Part shown: positions 4,828-34,300 of the stretch, piece after piece | Position numbering within the stretch: the stretch's first letter is position 1 | Layout of the letters: the number at the start of each line of letters is the position of its first letter | DNA from: a virus | IMG/VR virus record: IMGVR_UViG_3300029454_000001 | Coordinates: 14,344 to 78,343 of that record | Reading direction: 5' to 3' (one strand) | Length of the DNA: 64,000 nucleotides | Notes under the pieces: generated by a model | Seen by the model: the letters and a program-made list of their open reading frames with translations, nothing else | Database searches by the model: none | What the model was told of the DNA's origin: nothing | Program-made: the position numbers and the translations under genes

Positions 4828-5608
4828 CTGCCGCTCTGTCTAATTTATCGTGAAATTTTCTATGGCAATTTTCGCATAACACTATGAGATCGTTATCTGC
4901 AACTGATCTCATATGTTCTCGTCCGTGATTTTCATATGTTTTATGGTGGACATTAAGTTTTCCACTCTTTCCGCATAGCTGGCAACGGTAATTTGCGCTT
5001 TTTAATTTATAATTCCTAACGCCATCCCAATACGGTGTATGTAAAAAATCGTTATAATCCATATTGCTAATCTCTTTGCATATTTCGTCTTGATCTGGGT
5101 TAGTTCCATATTTTTGATACATGATATAGTTAATTTTGTCTTTTGCAGATACTCCATCTCTAAAGCAAGCTTTAGGATTTAAATACTCCTTGTATCTGAG
5201 AGTAAGATTTGCAAGTTCCTCTTTTCTTTCTTTTTCCCATTTTTCATGAGATATTGATTGTTTGATCTTTATTTGCTTCTGATATTCTGTCTCACATTCT
5301 TCGCATCTGAAATACTCGTTATTAGTGTCTTTATTATTGATACATTTAATCATATTTAAAATTCTAGTTTTAGAAATCATCCGAGTATATATTTTCCCGC
5401 AAATAGGACATTTTATTTGATATTCATATAAAACCTTATCTGTGGGAGTTAAGTTATCATATCTATAAAATGCATTAGTGATTTCTGTTGTTTTTGCATT
5501 CATCAGAATTTTTGTAAGTTCAAAGTCGATAAGATCTCCACGTTTTATTAAATTGTCATTTTTTCGGATATCAGAAAAGACTACATTTTTGATAAATTCT
5601 TTGTTCAT
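4820..5608 (-). CDS. HNH endonuclease with N-terminal zinc ribbons
   Basis: C-terminal YRCQLCGKSGKLNVHHKTYENHGREHMRSVADNDLIVLCENCHRKFH; CPICGK / CEECE ribbons. Confidence 0.75.
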   Translation of the reverse strand: MNKEFIKNVVFSDIRKNDNLIKRGDLIDFELTKILMNAKTTEITNAFYRYDNLTPTDKVLYEYQIKCPICGKIYTRMISKTRILNMIKCINNKDTNNEYFRCEECETEYQKQIKIKQSISHEKWEKERKEELANLTLRYKEYLNPKACFRDGVSAKDKINYIMYQKYGTNPDQDEICKEISNMDYNDFLHTPYWDGVRNYKLKSANYRCQLCGKSGKLNVHHKTYENHGREHMRSVADNDLIVLCENCHRKFHDKLDRAAGE

Positions 5609-5739
5609 ATAGATAACCTCCGTATTGGTTGTTGGCGTACCATGAACCGCCAGAATCCGTAATTATAAAACAGTGGACAGGCGTATTACGGTTTACGCTT
5701 TTCGGCGGCCAACCTAGCCCACTGGTTTTACCGAATTAA

Positions 5740-6036
5740 TTAATCAAACATTTTGAATGTTTCCTTGCAAAATTCCTCATAATCGGTTTTTCCGACCAGT
5801 GGCATTTTATTCCTCAGTTTTTCCATGGCTCTAAAAAACTTGCCTTGGTCTTTATTCCAGATTTTACAGGAAATTAGAAGATACTTCTCTTCTGTATGTC
5901 CAAATTCTTTTCCGAAATTCACTCTAATTTTCTCATTTTTAAAAAGTTGGTCTGCCAGATACTCTTCTGTATCTGCGAAAATGTATTCGCTACGGAATAA
6001 ATGTTTTTGAATTAAGATGTAATTTTTATATGACAT
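5740..6036 (-). CDS. hypothetical protein
   Basis: 98-aa ORF with SD GGGAGGAA, preceded by a terminator. Confidence 0.45.
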   Translation of the reverse strand: MSYKNYILIQKHLFRSEYIFADTEEYLADQLFKNEKIRVNFGKEFGHTEEKYLLISCKIWNKDQGKFFRAMEKLRNKMPLVGKTDYEEFCKETFKMFD

Positions 6037-6049
6037 GATATTCCTCCCT

Positions 6050-6081
6050 TTGAAAAAGGTTCCATTTTAAATCGAACCTTT
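6050..6081 (-). terminator. intrinsic terminator after the Rha gene
   Basis: Minus strand AAAGGTTC-loop-GAACCTTT followed by a T-run. Confidence 0.5.
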
Positions 6082-6122
6082 CCAGACCTCATTTTAAATG
6101 CGGGCTGTCTAAAAATTCAAAA

Positions 6123-6770
6123 TCATGCGGCAATTTTATTAATTCCTTTATTCAGAATAAATTCTTTAATTTCGTTATATCCCCAGCCGTATCCAACCAA
6201 TGCACTTACAAGCATTTCGGCGTTCTGGACTTTCACCAACTCTTCTTCTGAAAAATAATCTCTCATACTTTCTTTCTTGGAAATTCCAAATTCATCTCTC
6301 AGTTGCTTGGCGTTTTTGCCAAATATGGACTTGTAAATAACGTCCGTATATGTAGAATAGGCATGTCCGTGCATTCTTTCATTTTCAGAAGATTGCTGGA
6401 TTGCCTTGGTAAACGCTTGCCTTACTGCAATTCCTTTTTCACGTTCTTTGATTTTTCCAATAAGGAGCTTTTCCATTGCATTGAACTGCCGAATATAGCC
6501 CTCTTTGAATTTCATTGCTTTTTCGCCAGTATAGCCCATAGCTAAAAGTGTAAATCCATCTCTGGTTACATAGTACATTGGCTGTTTCTTATTTTGACAA
6601 TTGACGTAAGAGGACTGCACGAAATTGTGCCTTCTAAAATCCTCACTGCATTCAAGTTCTCTTATATCTTGCAAAACCCTTTTATGTTCTTTCTCAAATG
6701 TCTCCGCAATATCTAGGCTTGTTACAATACTGGTTTCTACTTTTCCAATCATCATAACTTCTACCAACAT
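6123..6770 (-). CDS. Rha-family phage regulatory protein (antirepressor-like)
   Basis: VTSLDIAETFEKEHKRVLQDIRELECSEDFRRHNF matches the Rha N-terminal domain. Start moved from 6818 (inside the tape-measure terminator hairpin) to ATG 6770, which has SD AAGGAGGAA. Confidence 0.7.
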   Translation of the reverse strand: MLVEVMMIGKVETSIVTSLDIAETFEKEHKRVLQDIRELECSEDFRRHNFVQSSYVNCQNKKQPMYYVTRDGFTLLAMGYTGEKAMKFKEGYIRQFNAMEKLLIGKIKEREKGIAVRQAFTKAIQQSSENERMHGHAYSTYTDVIYKSIFGKNAKQLRDEFGISKKESMRDYFSEEELVKVQNAEMLVSALVGYGWGYNEIKEFILNKGINKIAA

Positions 6771-6800
6771 TCTCCATTCCTCCTTATATTGATGGATAAA

Positions 6801-6871
6801 ATAAAAAAGAGCCGCCAAGTAAGATAAAAATTCCTCAAAATCGAGAAATATTAATTTCTTCTTAGCGGCTC
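6801..6871 (-). terminator. strong intrinsic terminator closing the late operon directly after the tape measure gene
   Basis: Minus strand GAGCCGCTAAGAAGA...TCTTACTTGGCGGCTC followed by TTTTTTATTTT; arms at 6857-6871 and 6809-6824. Confidence 0.75.
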
Positions 6872-6932
6872 AAAAATCAAGACCGTGTGTACTTCTTCAT
6901 TGAAGAAATTATACCACACAATCAGTCAAAAA

Positions 6933-9900
6933 TCAATATGCCGGGGACGGTTTGAAACGGCTATCCGTATCGTTCTGTGCTTTTGTTACTGCTTTTGCAA
7001 TCTCGCTTCCGTCCAGAATAATGCTGTTCATAATGTACTGCGGATTGTTATTTCCGCTGTTCATGCTCATTGCCATTGCAACTCCCTGGGCTACTGCTTT
7101 TGTCATTTCTTCTTTTGTAAGTCCCATGCTTCCGTCCGAACTGGAAACAATGCTGTCTGCAATCTTCTTCATGGTTCGTGGATTTTCCAAAGGAAGGACG
7201 GCTTCAGAACCAGCTTCACCGATACCAATTACCTGTGCGCCATTGAAAAGACCACCTTTGGCATACCAATTTGGATAATACCAATTAGGACTATATACAG
7301 GAGTGGAACTAGTCTTTCCTCCTCCAAGATTGTGTTTTTTCCACTCAGAAATTTTGTATGACAGCGTTGGAAAGCTAACGAGCTTCATCCCATTGACATA
7401 AGATTGTGCCGCTTGCTGACCAGCAGAGGTTAGATCAACACTAAATAAGCCTTTTATTTTATCGGAAATTCCAGATAGGTTATTTTCTGTATAGGTCTTC
7501 ATTTTTTGAGTCTCGGTGTCAACTTTACCAGAAGCCTTTTCCCAAATCTGGTTTGTATTGATAAGAACGGAAGACCAATAGCTTTGAATGGTTGTCATAA
7601 CTTTACCCATTACATCTTTTGTATCGGTGTCCATTGTTCCGAGGGCTGTCGATACAGCACTTGCGGAATTTCCCCAGTTTGTTTTTGAATCAGAACTAAT
7701 ATTTTCTGTGGAAGTTTTTACTTTTGTCTGTGCGGCAGACATAGCTTTCTCAGTTGCTGTTTGAATTCCAGACATTGCAGTTCCTGTAGCTTTGGATATG
7801 CTTCCCATTCCAGTTTTTACAAAAGTATTTGTACTGCTGATAGAGGTTTTCGTCTTAGTTTCCATCTCTTTCACGGAATCTGGGAATACTTGTGCAAAAA
7901 TCTTTGCTACAGATTCTGTATTGATTCCGAGTTCCTTGGCGCGCGCCATGATATTATCAAATGCATCCTGTGCAGTGCCACCAGAATTTTCAGCTTCCAT
8001 TAATGCTGTATCAAGAGAAACCATTTCATCTGCGCTAAGTCCTAACTGTGTTTGCAATTGTGGAAGAACAGTGTCATACAAATCATCAATCGACTGTTTA
8101 CTAAGGTCAATACTTCCAGACATATTTGTTGTTTTATCATCCAATGTTTTAATAGAATCAGACAATATTTTAAACATGTCGTCCGTAATAAGACCTTTCT
8201 GGTTTAATTGAGAAAATGCTTGCTCTGCCTGGTCAGATGTAACCCCCATTTCTCCCAACTTGTCAATCAATTTTTGTGTTGCTTTTGCCTTATCCTCGGC
8301 GGTCATCCCTTCTTGCTCAAGGCTTTCTTTTAACTGCCAAATTTCCTCTGCTGATCCAGAAAGAATATCACCTCTTCTCTGTAAAGTTTGAATGAAGTTA
8401 TTCATGGTATTGCCGAATGTGGTTCCAACACCATTACCGCCTTGCATGGTTTCAACAAGACCAGCCAATTGAGAGGTTGCGCCAGCTGCAGCTACTCCTA
8501 CTGCCACGATAAGTCCAGCTTCACCTACAAGAGGGCCAAGTGCTTTAGTAAGAGAGCCAAATTTACTGCTTGAAGAACCTGCCGCATCCCCTAAATCTTT
8601 TATTGCTTCTTTTGCTCCACTTGTGCCATCTCCAAGGACATCTGCTAATTTTTCAGCAATCATTTCAGCGTTTTTCTTTTCAGCTATTTTACTCGCAATA
8701 TGTCCCACAAGTGAACCAACAAGAGTACTGATACCTGTGATATTTGCTATTTTTACTGCAATAAAGGCTTTTCCAAGAATATCAACAAGACTTCCAACAA
8801 GCGGATGGTTTTCTTTTATTCCGTCCACTAATCCGTTAAATGCATCTGATAAACCACCAAGAATCAAATCAGCTGCTGTACTAAGGATTTCACCCCATGG
8901 CAATTCACCAAGGAATGTTCCAACTCCTTGTCCGAACTCATAGAATGTGTCTGTAGTGAGAGAATCTTTTAATGCGGTACACAGGTGAGATATAAAATCT
9001 CCAAGAGCCTGTCCATTTTCTTTCCAGTTTGTTTCTTTGATGAATTTAGCGATTCCATCTCTTATCTTGGTTGCGAGATCATCCCAATTAAATGTTTCGG
9101 TAAATGATTTTAAGCTTTCGAACGCTCCGTTTAATAAACCAGAAAGTGCATCTGCAATTGTGTTCATGTCTATCTTTTTTATTGCACCATTTAAGGCTTT
9201 TCCAATAGCAGTGCCAAGCTTACCCCATCCAGTAATTCCAGCACCATCCTTTTTAGACATATCCTTTACAAAGCCAGAAAGCATTTTCCAAGATGCCATA
9301 AAACTGTTCCCAATTAAGTTTCCAAGACCTGTCCAGTCAATTTCCTTTATAGCACCTTTTAAAAGTTGAGACAGTTTTGCCCCTATTCCGGAAAAATCTA
9401 TTCCTCCATCTCCAAGCAACAGGTTTAGAGTATTTACTGCTGTGTTAATTCCAGCTCCAAGCAATCTTCCCATTAAGTCAAAATCTATACCGCTAACCAT
9501 GGAATTGAATGCCGTGGTAAATGCATTTACAAATTCGGTTATTTTCGGGCCAACATTATTCCAATTAATAACTTCGTATATTTTTTGCATTCCAACATTT
9601 ATCATATCTGCAATAGTAAAGCCTAGTCCCTGCCAGTCTTTATTGATAAATGCTTTTCTGATTTTAGCAGCCCATTTATTGATTGGTGTTTCGTCAACAG
9701 TCAAAACTTCATCCAGTGAATCTTGTATTCCAGCAAAACTATCTGCTAAATCTCCAAGTCCAGAACCAAGACTTTTAGATTCAGTTCCAGAATTATCGGA
9801 ATTATCTGTAAGCTGATTTAATTGGTCGAATGGCAATACAGAAAGTGCCTTTTTTAATTTCTTGGCAGATGATGTAGCGTCATCAAGCCCGGAGGAGGCA

Positions 9901-13925: not shown

Positions 13926-14441
13926 TTAGGAATAGAATACCTCTTTGGCAATTTTGCGGATATTCTGAATGATTTCTACGCTTGCCTTATACATTGGCAT
14001 TGTAGCTTCTGTACCGTAAGAACGTACCCATTCGCCGGAATCAGAAATATATACCCAGGAATCGTTTTTTCCTTTTCCTTGTCCGTAAGAACCGATTGTA
14101 TAACCAAATTCTTCTCCTTTTGGATGTGGGCTAGAACCGGCTGCACCATTGTGGTAAATACCAGCGCCGAATTCAATGAATAAAATGCTTTTGCCTTCGC
14201 ATATTAAATGGGCTTCTGCATAGTCCCCAAAACTGTTAATTTTGATGTAAGTATTGTGGTTCTTATCAGAATCGCCTTGTGCTGCCAAAATATTTTGGTC
14301 AATAACTGGAATCCCTAATTCACATAATCTTTTTATGAAAATTTCATTTTTGTTCCTTAAAGATTTTTGATAATTTTTTATTTCATCAATAGCTTTTTGG
14401 ATTGATTTCTGTGATAAGGTACACTTTATTGTCTTACCCAT
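13926..14441 (-). CDS. HK97 gp10-like head-tail joining protein
   Basis: FIEFGAGIYH...GTEATMPMYKA pattern; start ATG 14441 overlaps the upstream stop (ATGGGTAA) behind AGAGGAA. Confidence 0.5.
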   Translation of the reverse strand: MGKTIKCTLSQKSIQKAIDEIKNYQKSLRNKNEIFIKRLCELGIPVIDQNILAAQGDSDKNHNTYIKINSFGDYAEAHLICEGKSILFIEFGAGIYHNGAAGSSPHPKGEEFGYTIGSYGQGKGKNDSWVYISDSGEWVRSYGTEATMPMYKASVEIIQNIRKIAKEVFYS

Positions 14442-28309: not shown

Positions 28310-28897
28310 TCACGCTTTCTTGACTGGCCATTCAAAGCCAAAATCTGAACGTTTGATTTTGCATTGTGGGCTTCCGTCCTTCCAGAAAACTAATCCCTCT
28401 ATCTCGTGTTCGGAAAGATATTTCTTGATTCCATAAAATGTACGCTCGACTTCAACGATATTGTTGCCATGTCTTACTAAAGAATCATCATCGTCATAAT
28501 ATGGATTGCCTTGAAAATGCTTTCCGACAGCTTCATATGTGCCATCTGGTAATTTACAACCTTGATTTGTCCACATTGAAGTTACATAATACGCTTCTAC
28601 AAACCACTTATCAGACGGATTATTCTCATCAACCTTTACCCATCCCGGCCAATGACCTGTAATCGCATCTGGTTCGCAACAGGGAATAAATCCCTCTGGT
28701 GGTATTTTGCCCTTCTTGCAGTCGTATCGTTTATAAAATTTTCCGTCAATTACTGCACAGCAAGAGCCGTCGTATTTGACTGTTGCAATTCCTTCTCCTT
28801 CAAGTACCCATTCCATACCCGGATGCGCTTTCGGTAGAGTCTTTACAATCTTGTGGTCTTTGAATTCTCGCTCAAATAATGTTGGTATCTTTTTCAT
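28310..28897 (-). CDS. minimal ATP-dependent ligase-like nucleotidyltransferase (RNA-ligase-like)
   Basis: Motif I ATVKYDGSC (KxDG), motif IV EGLVFW, motif V CKIKRSDFG; at 195 aa it is too short to carry an OB domain. Confidence 0.55.
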   Translation of the reverse strand: MKKIPTLFEREFKDHKIVKTLPKAHPGMEWVLEGEGIATVKYDGSCCAVIDGKFYKRYDCKKGKIPPEGFIPCCEPDAITGHWPGWVKVDENNPSDKWFVEAYYVTSMWTNQGCKLPDGTYEAVGKHFQGNPYYDDDDSLVRHGNNIVEVERTFYGIKKYLSEHEIEGLVFWKDGSPQCKIKRSDFGFEWPVKKA

Positions 28898-29178
28898 TTC
28901 CTCACCATCTTTCTTTTTGATTTCAAGTATTTTCTGTATTTGCGACTGTATTTACGAAGAATTAAATCGAGCATAATGCTATTTGTCTGTTCTACGTTTT
29001 CTGACATAGTTGTGAGATATGGATAATCTTCTCTATCATCTACTAATGTCTTGAAGATCAAGTCTAAAGCAAACTGAGCACTGACAGGTGGGTCGCACAG
29101 TTCAAAGTCTTTATCCTTGTACCACTCATCAATCTTATTTTGGAATCCATCAAAGGATATTTCTTCGTTCCATATCAT
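28894..29178 (-). CDS. hypothetical protein
   Basis: 94 aa; overlaps the neighbouring gene ends. Confidence 0.4.
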   Translation of the reverse strand: MIWNEEISFDGFQNKIDEWYKDKDFELCDPPVSAQFALDLIFKTLVDDREDYPYLTTMSENVEQTNSIMLDLILRKYSRKYRKYLKSKRKMVRK

Positions 29179-31198: not shown

Positions 31199-31270
31199 TA
31201 GAAACAACAGGAATCGAACCTGTGTCACATGATATTCAATATCATTGCTCTACCACTGAGCTATGTTTCA
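31199..31270 (-). tRNA. anomalous class-I tRNA with anticodon UGA (Ser codon UCA) and a U1-U72 mismatch
   Basis: Minus strand TGAAACA-TA-GCTC-AGTGGTA-GAGC-A-ATGAT-ATTGAAT-ATCAT-GTGAC-ACAGG-TTCGATT-CCTGT-TGTTTCT-A; short variable loop, no encoded CCA. Confidence 0.6.
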
Positions 31271-31329
31271 TATCCCGCCTGTCACGGACAGTTCTTTTCA
31301 AAGGAACTGGGATGGGTTTCACTTTTGCT

Positions 31330-32781
31330 TCATTCGACAGTAATACAAGCGTATCTTTCTGAATTGATTGTGTTTTCCATAGCTTCAATCGGATTGTATC
31401 CAAGATTCTGTAAGATTTGTTTAAAAACTGTTACAGATTGACCACTTGCAAGTTGTACGCCTTTTCTCTTGGAATCTGCATGGAATACATCATGTCTGCT
31501 GTTTACATTCCAGAAGATAACGTTTGGAATAACATATCCAGATTTATGAAACTTGTTTGCCATCTTATCATAAAATGACCAATCTCGATTTCCACAATAA
31601 TCAATTTCCATATCAGAAATTACGACAATAGCTTTTGGCATTTCTTCCTGTGAAATATTATTTTTTTCTGCGATATCAAGCACCTTTTTAAATGCAGCTT
31701 TAAGGTTTGTACTACCGCCCCAATCTGCCCCTTTAGCATTATTGATTTTCTGTGAAAGGGTTTCACCCTTTAAAACAACTGTTTCTGGATTGCTCGAAAA
31801 TGTCATAAACAAATTGTGGTATGCCCCAACATTTCTTTCGGCAAAGTATATTGCCAATCCGATTGACGTTGCCATTGGTCTTCCGGTCATCGAACCGGAT
31901 ACATCAGCCATAATCAAAGCATTTGTTCCCTGTTCTATGTAATTTGGGAGTGCTTTCCATTGTGCTTCAAGAACTTTATTGTTCTCTCGTCCGTAAATGA
32001 TTTTTTCAACGATGTCATAAGGATACAAAGTTGAAGCGTTGATTTTAACTTCTCCTTTATCAGCCTTATTAATAAAATCATTAAATCCATCTGGATCATG
32101 TTTTGCAAAAGCTCTGCGATAAATCATCATTGCACGGCTCGGAACTTCTGGATATTTAATCTCATTCCATTTACCGGCAGACATAAGGCTTTCAACAACA
32201 CCGATCTGTTTTCTCATACTACGAACAATCCTTTTGAAGTTGTAGACTGGATAACCCAACTTCTGTGCAGTCAAGATTCCTAACTTCCTAGTTTCTCTGC
32301 TACTTGCATCAGCAGTCTTAATCCATTTAGCAAGTAAAGAAATCGCTTTTCCCTCATTAAGATTCTTCAAATCTTCCTCGAACTGAATCTTCATGGTTTT
32401 CCACATATCGTCTTCCATTGGTGTTCCAATCAGTTCATACAGATCATCGTATCTCCCGAATACTCCAATCAAGTCAAGATTCGGTCTAAGTGCTCCTGGA
32501 TGATGTTCAGCCATGTAACGGATAATGGTTCGGAAAGTTTTTCTCTCTCCAAGCCCGTAACGAATATCTCTTGCATAAAAAGCAATCTTTGTGGCAAAGA
32601 GTTTATCCTGTTCAAATGCTTCTGAGAATAAAGTGGTGATTCTATTTTCATCAGCTTCTCTCAATGCGCCAATAGTTCCGAACAGGTCAAGTCTTGCATC
32701 GCTTGTAGTATTCAGCGCAACTGCTCCGTTTTCGGTTCTTGTAAACTTGCTTTCTTCTTTCATTGCATTTGCAAAATCCAT
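31330..32781 (-). CDS. Ro60-like architecture protein: helical N-domain plus MIDAS vWA domain (DUF2828-type)
   Basis: 483 aa; MIDAS residues ADVSGSMTG, GGSTN, VISDMEID; I recognise the N-terminal helical region as DUF2828-like; SD AAAGGAGAA. Confidence 0.6.
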   Translation of the reverse strand: MDFANAMKEESKFTRTENGAVALNTTSDARLDLFGTIGALREADENRITTLFSEAFEQDKLFATKIAFYARDIRYGLGERKTFRTIIRYMAEHHPGALRPNLDLIGVFGRYDDLYELIGTPMEDDMWKTMKIQFEEDLKNLNEGKAISLLAKWIKTADASSRETRKLGILTAQKLGYPVYNFKRIVRSMRKQIGVVESLMSAGKWNEIKYPEVPSRAMMIYRRAFAKHDPDGFNDFINKADKGEVKINASTLYPYDIVEKIIYGRENNKVLEAQWKALPNYIEQGTNALIMADVSGSMTGRPMATSIGLAIYFAERNVGAYHNLFMTFSSNPETVVLKGETLSQKINNAKGADWGGSTNLKAAFKKVLDIAEKNNISQEEMPKAIVVISDMEIDYCGNRDWSFYDKMANKFHKSGYVIPNVIFWNVNSRHDVFHADSKRKGVQLASGQSVTVFKQILQNLGYNPIEAMENTINSERYACITVE

Positions 32782-32934
32782 GTTTCTTCTCCTTTCAGGA
32801 CACGAAAAATATAAAATATACGAATTAGATTTTATTTAAGTGAGTTGCTGTAAGCGTCCCATAAATTTCATGATGCTTTTGTGTTTCATAATTAAAAGTT
32901 ATGCCCAAAATGATTGCTGTAAGCATCACATAAT

Positions 32935-33023
32935 TGCCCCGACAGGATTTGAACCTATAAAATTATTTGCAGTGAAGAACACAAACATGTTCTAATCGGT
33001 TTTCCGTAACCGATAACCGGGGC
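32935..33023 (-). ncRNA. tRNA-like RNA A (89 nt, non-canonical)
   Basis: GCCCCGG acceptor arm, D-like arm ATCGG/CCGAT with a GG loop, T arm ATAGG-TTCAAAT-CCTGT. The anticodon-position hairpin AGAACA-TGTTTG-TGTTCT has a 6- or 8-nt loop. The acceptor plus T stack is one bp short. Confidence 0.45.
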
Positions 33024-33025
33024 AG

Positions 33026-33139
33026 TGACGAGGGATGGGTTCGAACCACCAACCTATGCCTTGTAATGGAGTAAATTGCTGTTATAGTCACAAACATGAC
33101 TAATATTCTCATTGCTCTGTCCAATTGAGCTACCTCGTC
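33026..33139 (-). ncRNA. tRNA-like RNA B (114 nt, extended anticodon-position arm)
   Basis: Canonical GACGAGG/CCTCGTC acceptor, GCTC-AATTGGACA-GAGC D arm and GGTGG-TTCGAAC-CCATC T arm. A 62-nt insert between them ends in hairpin TAGTCA-TGTTTG-TGACTA. It lies 2 nt from RNA A. Confidence 0.45.
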
Positions 33140-33198
33140 TAAAAACCAACAATAGCTATGCTAAAGTCAGATTTCCTATCTACACTTGGTAGATGGAA

Positions 33199-33270
33199 TA
33201 GCAGGAGACGGATTCGAACCGCCGTTTCCATGGATATGAGCCATGTGAGATTCCGCTTCTCTATCCTGCT
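33199..33270 (-). tRNA. tRNA with CAU anticodon (Met-type; could be Ile2)
   Basis: AGCAGGA-TA-GAGA-AGCGGAA-TCTC-A-CATGG-CTCATAT-CCATG-GAAAC-GGCGG-TTCGAAT-CCGTC-TCCTGCT-A. Confidence 0.8.
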
Positions 33271-33429
33271 ATGTACATGTTTGGAAGAACCATTTCAGCA
33301 CGTTCACTTATTGACTACTAGAGGAAGTCACTATATCACCGATAAACAGTACGTATTCGGAACTCGGTTATACATTCCTACGCACTGCTCTGTGCTTTTC
33401 CTACCACCAAACTTTCAGTCTCCAAACAA

Positions 33430-33498
33430 TCGGAAAGGATGGATTCGAACCATCAAGACCTAGTCGACTAGCCCGTTCCCAGTTACTTGCACTTTCCG
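33430..33498 (-). ncRNA. tRNA-like minihelix element D (acceptor plus T arm only)
   Basis: CGGAAAG/CTTTCCG acceptor and GATGG-TTCGAAT-CCATC T arm. The D and anticodon arms are replaced by CAAG...CTTG enclosing the palindrome CTAGTCGACTAG. Confidence 0.4.
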
Positions 33499-33789
33499 AA
33501 TAACCCGGTTCTTCCGGGTTAGCAATAGGTTTATCGTGTTATGCTTTCCACTATCTACAAGTTTTAGTGCTGTAGATTCACTGGATATTTTTATGCGTCT
33601 TAGAACGGCATCTCTTGAAAACTCCTTTTATTAACGTGCGCTGCGTTAATGTTTTTAACTCCGAGACATACCAGCCGGGAAATCAGATCCATTTAAGCTA
33701 CGCCGTATCGCACATAAATTTACCTAATCCACACACTCAACTGGAAGTTTTTTCCACCCATATTACGGATGAATGGCATTTAGAAGAAA

Positions 33790-33862
33790 TGGAAGCTCTG
33801 GGATTCGAACCCAGGACTTACGGCTTATGAGGCCGTTGCTCTTACCGCTGAACTAAGCTTCC
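33790..33862 (-). tRNA. tRNA with CAU anticodon (Met/fMet/Ile2-type)
   Basis: GGAAGCT-TA-GTTC-AGCGGTAA-GAGC-A-ACGGC-CTCATAA-GCCGT-AAGTC-CTGGG-TTCGAAT-CCCAG-AGCTTCC-A. Confidence 0.8.
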
Positions 33863-34011
33863 TGAGATACCAGAAATAAGCCCGCCATAGATTTATTTCT
33901 GGCACTGTTGCAGTTCTTGACCACCAACCGCAACAAAGGTTTTCTGAAACACTTTTAGATTTCAGAAAAGAGTGTTATAAAATGAACTTGCGGCATTAGC
34001 GAAACCGCAAA

Positions 34012-34084
34012 CTGGGCTAACTGGATTCGAACCAGCAAATGCAGCAGTCAAAGTGCTGTGCCTTAACCGTTTGGCGATAGCCCA
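34012..34084 (-). tRNA. tRNA-Gln (UUG)
   Basis: TGGGCTA acceptor with U1-A72 and G73, anticodon arm CAGCA-CTTTGAC-TGCTG, T arm GCTGG-TTCGAAT-CCAGT. Confidence 0.8.
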
Positions 34085-34300
34085 TCAACCCCGGCGCACC
34101 ATTAAAACCGGGGAAGTCGTGATATTAAGCTAAACAAGTATATAAAATAAGAGTTTCCGCTACTCTGGATGCCTCGACTTATCACTTTCATAGGCTTTCC
34201 CGAGCCTACATGGATTAAGTCGAAGCTGCGCTTTTATGAATTTAACCCTTTCGATTAACTCGATCGGGATAATTCCAATTGGAATCGGTAAATACATTTG

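Follow-up and report, generated by a model that had tools for sequence, protein, structure and literature searches.

Bacterial Ro60 proteins (Rsr), which combine a TROVE domain with a vWA domain, are found with the Y RNAs YrlA and YrlB (Chen et al. 2014, PMC4201824), and the Thermus phage phiLo has a Ro60 with the RNAs Yrl1 and Yrl2 (PMC12135203). Here, we analyzed a locus of comparable design in a 64,000-nucleotide (nt) stretch of viral DNA (IMG/VR record IMGVR_UViG_3300029454_000001, positions 14,344 to 78,343), hereafter the window, whose own numbering is used below. The DNA comes from a gut phage whose near-identical IMG/VR contigs are Caudoviricetes, and related copies of the locus were found in Lachnospiraceae genomes. 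Its centerpiece is a coding sequence (CDS) for a 483-residue protein (31330–32781, minus strand, with its start at 32781 and its end at 31330), made of a DUF2828 helical N-terminal domain and a DUF7788 vWA domain with a complete MIDAS (metal ion–dependent adhesion site). The CDS lies in an island of RNA genes, all of them on the minus strand as well. This co-location of a DUF2828 gene with tRNA and tRNA-like units is real, and we consider it probable that the locus specifies a ribonucleoprotein of the Ro60/Y-RNA type, in which a divergent DUF2828 plus DUF7788 vWA protein is paired with its own class of small RNAs.

The likeness to Rsr/YrlA and to phiLo extends to several features. In each case, a helical domain is joined to a MIDAS-bearing vWA domain at the C terminus, one to several small RNAs flank the gene on the same strand, the RNAs combine a terminal helix, a short conserved motif by its 5′ arm and a module that is either plain or tRNA-like, and the system occurs in phages. 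With Rsr/YrlA there is a further link, in that relatives of the DUF2828 gene adjoin sub-threshold YrlA matches. The plain stem-loops of our locus are comparable to YrlB and its tRNA-bodied RNAs to YrlA, with which the RNA that we name RNA 1 shares tRNA-like D and T arms. In contrast to Rsr, the DUF2828 protein is detected neither by Pfam TROVE nor by profile search against Ro60 structures, and the motif is (A/G)CAGCAA, not GNCGAA or GGUCCGA. The logic is shared with Rsr/YrlA and phiLo, but protein lineage, recognition motif and, in this clade, RNA topology differ.

Architecture of the DUF2828 protein

An earlier reading of this DNA from its letters alone (the sequence-only reading) had described the 483-residue product as a DUF2828-type protein with a complete-MIDAS vWA domain. 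Pfam bears this out, with matches to DUF2828 (4.6e-40, 138 bits, cutoff 29), DUF7788 (8.6e-39, 133.5 bits, cutoff 27.1) and VWA_2 (5e-7), and the protein is matched over its full length by PHROG 850, annotated as 'RNA-binding protein' (8e-137). The MIDAS residues D292, S294, S296, T357, and D389 are invariant among 62 family representatives. The DUF2828 family is large, with about 6,500 clusters at 50% identity, and tblastn places it in 703 cultured phage records. Homologues in Mycobacterium phage UPIE and its relatives are already named 'Ro-like RNA binding protein' in GenBank, while a literature search for DUF2828 found no paper on its function.

A full-length AlphaFold2 model built from 50 homologues was predicted with high scores (pLDDT 87.6, pTM 0.88). 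When this model was compared to the PDB using Foldseek, the best five matches were all Ro60/TROVE structures (9kop, 9nfa, 1yvp, and both chains of 9l5y), with E from 8e-7 to 3e-5, 505–568 aligned columns and TMq of 0.47–0.54; the remaining matches cover only the vWA domain, with TMq of about 0.2. In BFVD, DUF2828/DUF7788 proteins of phages and giant viruses rank first (TM up to 0.91), followed by TROVE proteins of a crAss-like phage and a Gordonia phage. The DUF2828/DUF7788 fold is also present in eukaryotic giant viruses, namely Pithovirus, Marseillevirus, CroV, and mimivirids.

Several results on the protein weigh against a Ro60-type particle or are neutral. Modeled alone, the N-terminal 283 residues gave a weaker model (pLDDT 78.7, pTM 0.65), which matched only generic ARM/HEAT structures in the PDB, at E ≥ 0.29, with no Ro60 in the top 50. 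Pfam TROVE (PF05731) has no match at E ≤ 10 in the query or in 62 family members. Likewise, phmmer and a 62-sequence family profile, both run against PDB sequences, returned only a generic vWA match and no Ro60 chain, and an alignment of the family profile to a single Ro60 sequence was confined to the vWA domain. We also compared the DUF2828 profile to a TROVE profile made from a 23-sequence alignment, for which the human Ro60 sequence was checked against PDB 9nen. This hhalign comparison spans 198 columns (Prob 59.5%, E 9e-5) and reaches over the vWA domain and only about 50 residues before it; in so far as it takes in helices ahead of the vWA domain, it also speaks for the Ro60-type reading. 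The DUF2828 MIDAS residues pair with the Ro60 MIDAS site, and in the stretch preceding the vWA domain TLYPYDIV is paired with Ro60 RIHPFHIL.

Because the full-length model matches Ro60 whereas the N-terminal half alone and the sequence tests do not, we describe the protein as Ro60-like in architecture, with family membership unproven. As modeled, the whole protein is Ro60-like in its overall layout, its C-terminal half is probably homologous to Ro60, and TROVE membership of its N-terminal half is unproven. Of the Ro60/TROVE architecture proposed in the sequence-only reading, what holds is the whole-protein resemblance. The specific TROVE claim for the N-terminal half was dropped, its separate model having no significant PDB match.

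Small RNAs upstream of the gene

RNA 1 (33026–33139, minus strand) is tRNA-like. Its acceptor stem measures 7 bp, and its D arm (GCUC/GAGC) and T arm (GGUGG UUCGAAC CCAUC) both covary. In the place of the anticodon loop there is a 51-nt module consisting of an A-rich linker, then the hairpin UAGUCAUGUUUGUGACUA (33085–33102, minus strand), then ACAGCAA (33076–33082, minus strand) two nucleotides 3′ of the hairpin. The Rfam tRNA model scores RNA 1 at 46.7 bits only by skipping this insert, which stands where a tRNA has its 5-bp anticodon stem with a 7-nt loop, and ARAGORN makes no call. According to Rfam, 13 of 15 IMG/VR loci have an insert-bearing 'tRNA' of ~114–127 nt on the gene strand, 150–370 nt upstream, and the ordinary tRNAs around it change between related IMG/VR loci.

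A covariance model trained on 16 copies found the RNA 1 family on the gene strand, nearly always upstream and often in 2–4 tandem copies per locus, in at least 56 of 80 GTDB loci whose proteins are 65–85% identical. Across 93 distinct sequences, 97.8% of cells are paired and 19 of the 23 pairs show compensatory changes, with a covariation score of 0.64 versus 0.17 for shuffled columns and 0.05–0.12 for slid partners. Covariation backs the acceptor stem, the D arm, the T arm, and the insert hairpin. In the hairpin, CAUG...GUG forms a conserved core around which the outer pairs covary, with compensatory changes in five of seven pairs and 96.8% pairing, and a near-invariant (A/G)CAGCAA follows 2–3 nt past it.

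An insert in the anticodon arm, in a phage with an RNA ligase gene 2.4 kb away, could also mean that RNA 1 is an intron-containing tRNA, from which the 51 nt are spliced, possibly by that ligase, to leave a decoding tRNA. We regard this as extremely improbable, for the flanking sequence yields no reconstructable anticodon loop, the hairpin-ACAGCAA module is also found outside any tRNA context, and the ligase is not conserved. Moreover, group I introns are far longer than 51 nt. With transfer-messenger RNA (tmRNA), RNA 1 shares a tRNA-like acceptor stem and T arm with a large internal insertion. It differs in that ARAGORN makes no tmRNA call, the insert is only about 50 nt, and there is no stop-ended tag frame. 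A mini-tmRNA identity was rejected since no in-frame stop codon follows the GCA of the motif.

Directly downstream in the direction of transcription lies RNA 2 (32934–33024, minus strand), recognized by reading the sequence and then confirmed by conservation. Its acceptor stem (UGCCCCG/CGGGGCA) is perfect over 7 bp and a T arm is present, but there is no anticodon loop, and a stem-loop replaces the D arm. Its hairpin AGAACAUGUUUGUGUUCU (32976–32993, minus strand) is followed by the variant motif ACUGCAA at 32967–32973. About 60 blastn matches to RNA 2 were retrieved across related loci; the more distant copies carry canonical ACAGCAA, and the stem replacing the D arm covaries. RNA 2 is retained in loci without RNA 1, where a tRNA-Tyr takes the place of the latter.

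Two plain stem-loops occupy the leader of the gene. Leader stem-loop 1 (32870–32929, minus strand), with the layout GUGAUGCUU-ACAGCAA-(about 35 nt)-AAGCAUCAU, is conserved in relatives; its stem is Y-RNA-like, and the motif follows directly on the 5′ arm. Leader stem-loop 2 (32797–32860, minus strand), with the layout GGGACGC-UU-ACAGCAA-(about 41 nt)-CGUGUCC, has a 3′ arm that ends 4 nt short of the gene's ribosome-binding site, AAAGGAG.

The RNAs define a signature, in which a helix is followed within 0–3 nt by single-stranded (A/G)CAGCAA and then by a variable module, either a plain loop, as in both leader stem-loops, or a tRNA-like body. As likely partners of the protein we regard the leader stem-loops together with the insert-bearing tRNA-like RNAs upstream. 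The tRNA-like RNAs of this clade have the normal tRNA arm order, with helix and motif in place of the anticodon loop. Their parts follow one another as acceptor stem, D arm, insert, T arm, and acceptor stem; the 7-bp acceptor end is free, and the motif occupies the anticodon position, whereas YrlA is permuted (T arm, closed acceptor stem, D arm). They also lack a GNCGAA(N0-1)G near the 5′ end. The Rfam YrlA model has no match in the window even at E ≤ 10, and Rfam 15 holds no family for the ACAGCAA RNA class.

Distribution of the ACAGCAA motif

The window contains 20 ACAGCAA sites, and only three of them, all in this locus, are intergenic with a strong stem. Among 149 distinct related loci, of which 136 carry at least one copy, three successive 200-nt bins upstream of the start codon hold 191, 119, and 35 copies on the gene strand, compared to a background of 1–9 per bin and to 0–1 on the opposite strand in the upstream bins. 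In the 200 nt upstream of the gene, the motif is thus about 40-fold enriched, on the gene strand only.

The association extends to much more distant phages. Ten very distant cultured phages were fetched, with proteins only 30–41% identical, and nine of these have one to five gene-strand copies of ACAGCAA in the flanks of the DUF2828 gene, versus two on the opposite strand in all ten together. There are five in Felix O1 (four within 1.1 kb of the gene) and in Bacillus PJN02, three in Mycobacterium phage UPIE (two within 260 nt of the gene), Listeria LMTA-34, Staphylococcus 6ec, Enterococcus EfV12-phi1, and Klebsiella KP13-26, two in Campylobacter CP81, and one in Vibrio nt-1. Nearly all copies are preceded by a 6–10 bp stem whose 3′ arm lies 20–105 nt downstream, an arrangement that is highly unusual relative to 3,300 random positions (Mann-Whitney p = 2e-10). 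In several of these phages, elements lie downstream of the gene, and in the Listeria, Enterococcus, and Klebsiella phages the element arrays stand behind their own strong TTGACA/-10 promoters.

Individual phages offer further details. In Felix O1 (7705–8450 of locus L161), an extended conserved form is seen, CAGAAGACC-N4-ACAGCAA, and the first two elements start about 20 nt past the 3′ ends of tRNA-Glu and tRNA-Met. In PJN02 (OM634653.1, L167 25–2300), the 2.4 kb upstream of the gene, annotated in the record with one small CDS and without RNA genes, contain about 14 unannotated tRNAs interspersed with stem-ACAGCAA elements and one YrlA-like unit with the variant ACAGCTA. In LMTA-34 (KJ668715.1, L163), there is a sub-threshold match to ROOL RNA (1465–2016; 82.7 bits, E 3e-15, gathering score 99.1) inside a tRNA array 1 kb upstream of the DUF2828 gene, and an RtcB 'tRNA-splicing ligase' gene (5844–7055) 1.3 kb downstream.

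A link to YrlA emerges in UPIE, EfV12-phi1, and KP13-26, where ACAGCAA or a one-base variant stands immediately 5′ of sub-threshold Rfam YrlA (RF02553) matches, which score 32–45 bits in these three phages, and 30–45 bits over the relatives' loci, versus a gathering score of 69. In these RNAs, the stem encloses a T arm, a closed acceptor-like stem and a D arm, in the permuted order of YrlA, and ACAGCAA takes the place of the YrlA GNCGAA. The RNAs of the window are an exact circular permutation of this design, in which the acceptor stem is where the tRNA body opens, and the terminal stem forms a closed hairpin in front of ACAGCAA. A check for YrlA, proposed along with the sequence-only reading, was negative for the window itself and gave sub-threshold matches beside the genes of distant relatives.

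As a prospective test set, we used 46 diverse environmental loci from IMG/VR, retrieved with a 39%-identical family member. Their flanks hold 71 gene-strand copies of ACAGCAA versus 8 on the opposite strand, with 8.3 expected from base composition; 28 loci are positive, and most copies have perfect 7–9 bp stems. As negative controls, two canonical TROVE Rsr loci have no gene-strand ACAGCAA in the intergenic DNA adjoining the gene; one of them, L172, has a single ACAGCAA inside a CDS 1.4 kb downstream. In these control loci, tandem tRNA-like RNAs lie upstream of the true Rsr genes (L171 about 990–1290, L172 about 930–1300). They have normal tRNA arm order, a long anticodon-arm insert and a repeated motif, GAGGGUUAUC or AAGGGUUAUC, that is seen again in the spacers beside them, and Rfam sees in these RNAs a tRNA with insert or a weak YrlA only. 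Along with Deinococcus Yrn1-type Y RNAs, they share with our RNAs the normal arm order, the long insertion and the tandem placement upstream of a Ro-type gene; they differ in that the proteins are true TROVE proteins and the RNAs repeat GAGGGUUAUC, with no ACAGCAA.

A short, strictly conserved motif that recurs in intergenic DNA by highly polymorphic tRNA slots might instead act as DNA, be it as an operator, as part of a promoter, or as a site of recombination or cassette joining through which tRNA genes are shuffled, with the vWA protein unrelated to RNA. Such a role would not be expected to show the strict strand bias found in environmental (71 versus 8) and cultured phages (27 versus 2). 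The helix arms around the motif differ in sequence between copies yet remain complementary, the motif stays conserved in phages from four bacterial phyla, whose transcription machineries are unrelated, and in YrlA-like RNAs it holds the position of the Ro-binding motif. We therefore judge a DNA-level role quite unlikely.

A putative particle and its tRNA setting

In the Ro60/Y-RNA-type particle that we favor, the protein would recognize the helix plus ACAGCAA, and the tRNA-shaped module may offer the particle to tRNA-recognizing enzymes or to RNA decay or repair enzymes. Maturation of the free acceptor end could fall to RNase P, RNase Z, and the CCA-adding enzyme, and the copy beside the ribosome-binding site might allow the protein to regulate its own translation. 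Seven lineages have the gene within or next to a tRNA array, namely this clade, Felix O1 (with the gene at the head of the array), KP13-26 (with the gene embedded), CP81, LMTA-34, EfV12-phi1, and PJN02. In Staphylococcus 6ec there is a single tRNA-Pro 1.7 kb downstream, and in UPIE, nt-1, and ME3 there is no tRNA within 2.5–5 kb of the gene. Since the gene is found inside or beside phage tRNA arrays in most lineages, its job in infection would likely be surveillance, protection or decoying of tRNA-like substrates.

Other observations count against such a particle. Of the 149 close loci, 13 have no copy of the motif in the 1200 nt before the gene, and it is also missing from the flanks examined in 18 of the 46 environmental loci and in Acinetobacter phage ME3 (0 copies). 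For a helix closing the insert of RNA 1, a candidate that we rejected, duplex energies are no better than those of shuffled controls (mean z −0.2), and a promoter and terminator scan of the locus gave no more matches than shuffled sequence. The tie between protein and RNAs is drawn from their co-occurrence. Finally, folding z-scores of the individual elements are weak (−0.3 to −2.6); the case rests on covariation and recurrence.

The elements could also be cis-acting parts of one long tRNA-mRNA transcript, serving as processing signals, stabilizers, or an autoregulatory leader, with no separate particle and no effector recruited. This would suit the position of leader stem-loop 2 beside the ribosome-binding site, the stem of Vibrio nt-1, whose 3′ arm covers the start codon, the Felix O1 elements directly past tRNA 3′ ends, and the fact that all elements are on the gene strand with no predicted terminators between them. 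It does not suit the arrays that have their own TTGACA/-10 promoters in the Listeria, Enterococcus, and Klebsiella phages, the elements that lie downstream of the gene in several phages, or the presence of two to five copies per locus, and tRNA-like modules with covarying acceptor stems exceed what a leader needs. Purely cis-acting elements are in our opinion unlikely, and autoregulation is in any case compatible with, and part of, the Ro60/Y-RNA-type model.

The sequence-only reading had noted that same-strand RNA genes bracket the CDS, and indeed six units lie upstream and an odd tRNA 59 nt downstream. Upstream, on the minus strand, ARAGORN and Rfam agree on a tRNA-Gln(UUG) at 34012–34084, a tRNA-Met(CAU) at 33790–33862, and a second tRNA-Met(CAU), an ordinary array member, at 33199–33270. 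Between the latter two, a degenerate unit (33430–33498, minus strand; 27 bits in a permissive scan, below the Rfam threshold) has an intact acceptor stem and T arm but no proper D or anticodon arm. Present in only five loci and closest to the Thr(UGU) tRNA of relatives, it is probably a decayed tRNA. For the 1 kb of heavily structured spacer that had been reported here, the analysis gave no sign of more than the usual hairpin-rich spacers between tRNAs.

These real tRNAs (Gln and two Met), the decayed-looking unit at 33430–33498 and an array composition that differs between relatives are what one would see in an ordinary codon-supply tRNA island with decayed pseudogenes, next to an unrelated vWA gene for, e.g., an assembly co-chaperone. 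The locus also resembles phage tRNA arrays, which supply codons or replace tRNAs cleaved by host nucleases, in that the gene sits inside or beside such an array. However, the conserved units beside our gene, RNA 1 and RNA 2, have no anticodon loop and cannot decode, and they persist and covary while true tRNAs are exchanged. The motif association also holds in phages such as UPIE and nt-1, for which neither annotation nor Rfam shows a tRNA within 3–5 kb of the gene, and covariation, upstream enrichment, and environmental strand bias all contradict a plain island, which we consider very unlikely. A Ro/Y-RNA-like particle explains the locus better than codon supply, as the sequence-only reading had argued, because the fold is closest to Ro60 and the gene is linked to tRNA-like and YrlA-type RNAs. 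The synteny survey proposed with that reading agrees, since homologues recur beside tRNA-like or ACAGCAA RNAs in close loci, in nine of ten distant phages, and in 28 of 46 environmental loci.

The downstream tRNA (31199–31270, minus strand, 59 nt past the stop codon), which had been suspected as a partner of the protein, has a class-I shape with a UGA anticodon and a U1-U72 mismatch. Its slot is polymorphic among near-identical phages (L001–L070, about 5500–5680). One scaffold occurs there with the anticodon loops AUUGAAU (UGA), ACUGAAU, and ACUCAAU (UCA, the opal-suppressor anticodon), the last with C instead of the near-universal U33, and in other phages the slot is taken by a 69-nt 'ACA' form whose anticodon arm is shortened, by a Thr(UGU) tRNA, or by a type-II Ser(GCU) tRNA. 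Because the slot varies between relatives, this tRNA is probably not the cognate RNA. Stop-codon recoding behind the UGA/UCA slot was also rejected, as open reading frame (ORF) statistics of the window agree with the standard code. A short hairpin, CUGUCCGUGACAG GCGG, lies between the gene's stop codon and the variable tRNA (within 31271–31329, minus strand), and it is conserved at the equivalent position in L001–L070, even where the tRNA behind it is swapped.

A ligase-like gene had been pointed out 2.4 kb further downstream, and an RNA ligase gene with a KxDG motif is present there (28310–28897, minus strand; phrog_14301 2.6e-55, weak Pfam RLIG1), in a variable accessory block. As a conserved partner it was rejected, since only 12 of 80 close loci and none of 80 genome loci have it within 4 kb. 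In the same block, immediately upstream of the ligase, a 94-residue ORF (28894–29178, minus strand) matches Pfam Tad8, a type II Thoeris inhibitor (2.6e-30), so that anti-defense cargo lies 2 kb from the RNA island. Elsewhere in the window, an Rfam int-alpA RNA was found at 5657–5724 (minus strand; 49 bits versus a gathering score of 35.8).

The recurring pairing of gene and motif suggests a widespread protein–RNA particle that is apparently undescribed, literature searches (DUF2828, ACAGCAA, YrlA plus phage) having returned no description of this RNA class and, for ACAGCAA, only primers. A bolder possibility, which we offer tentatively, is that DUF2828 proteins together with the (A/G)CAGCAA RNAs make up a separate system, sister to Ro60/Y RNA and phage-wide in its spread, that acts on host tRNA biology during infection. 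The tRNA-shaped RNAs might then be decoys or tethers for anticodon nucleases or for tRNA repair or decay enzymes, and the whole might be an RNA-based counter-defense or tRNA quality-control module. Equally tentatively, such a system would be shared by hundreds of cultured phages, among them Felix O1, the Listeria P100 group, Staphylococcus 6ec, Campylobacter CP81, KVP40-like vibriophages, and, among the Mycobacterium phages, UPIE and its relatives.

Taken together, these findings tie a large DUF2828 family to a precise RNA signature, which makes for a directly testable system. The probable particle would add to the Ro/Y-RNA paradigm a second protein lineage, one that uses a recognition code of its own, and tRNA mimicry recurs in both arm orders. 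Some phage 'pseudo-tRNAs' may be protein-binding scaffolds, and the ACAGCAA RNAs are currently missed or annotated as tRNAs with odd inserts.

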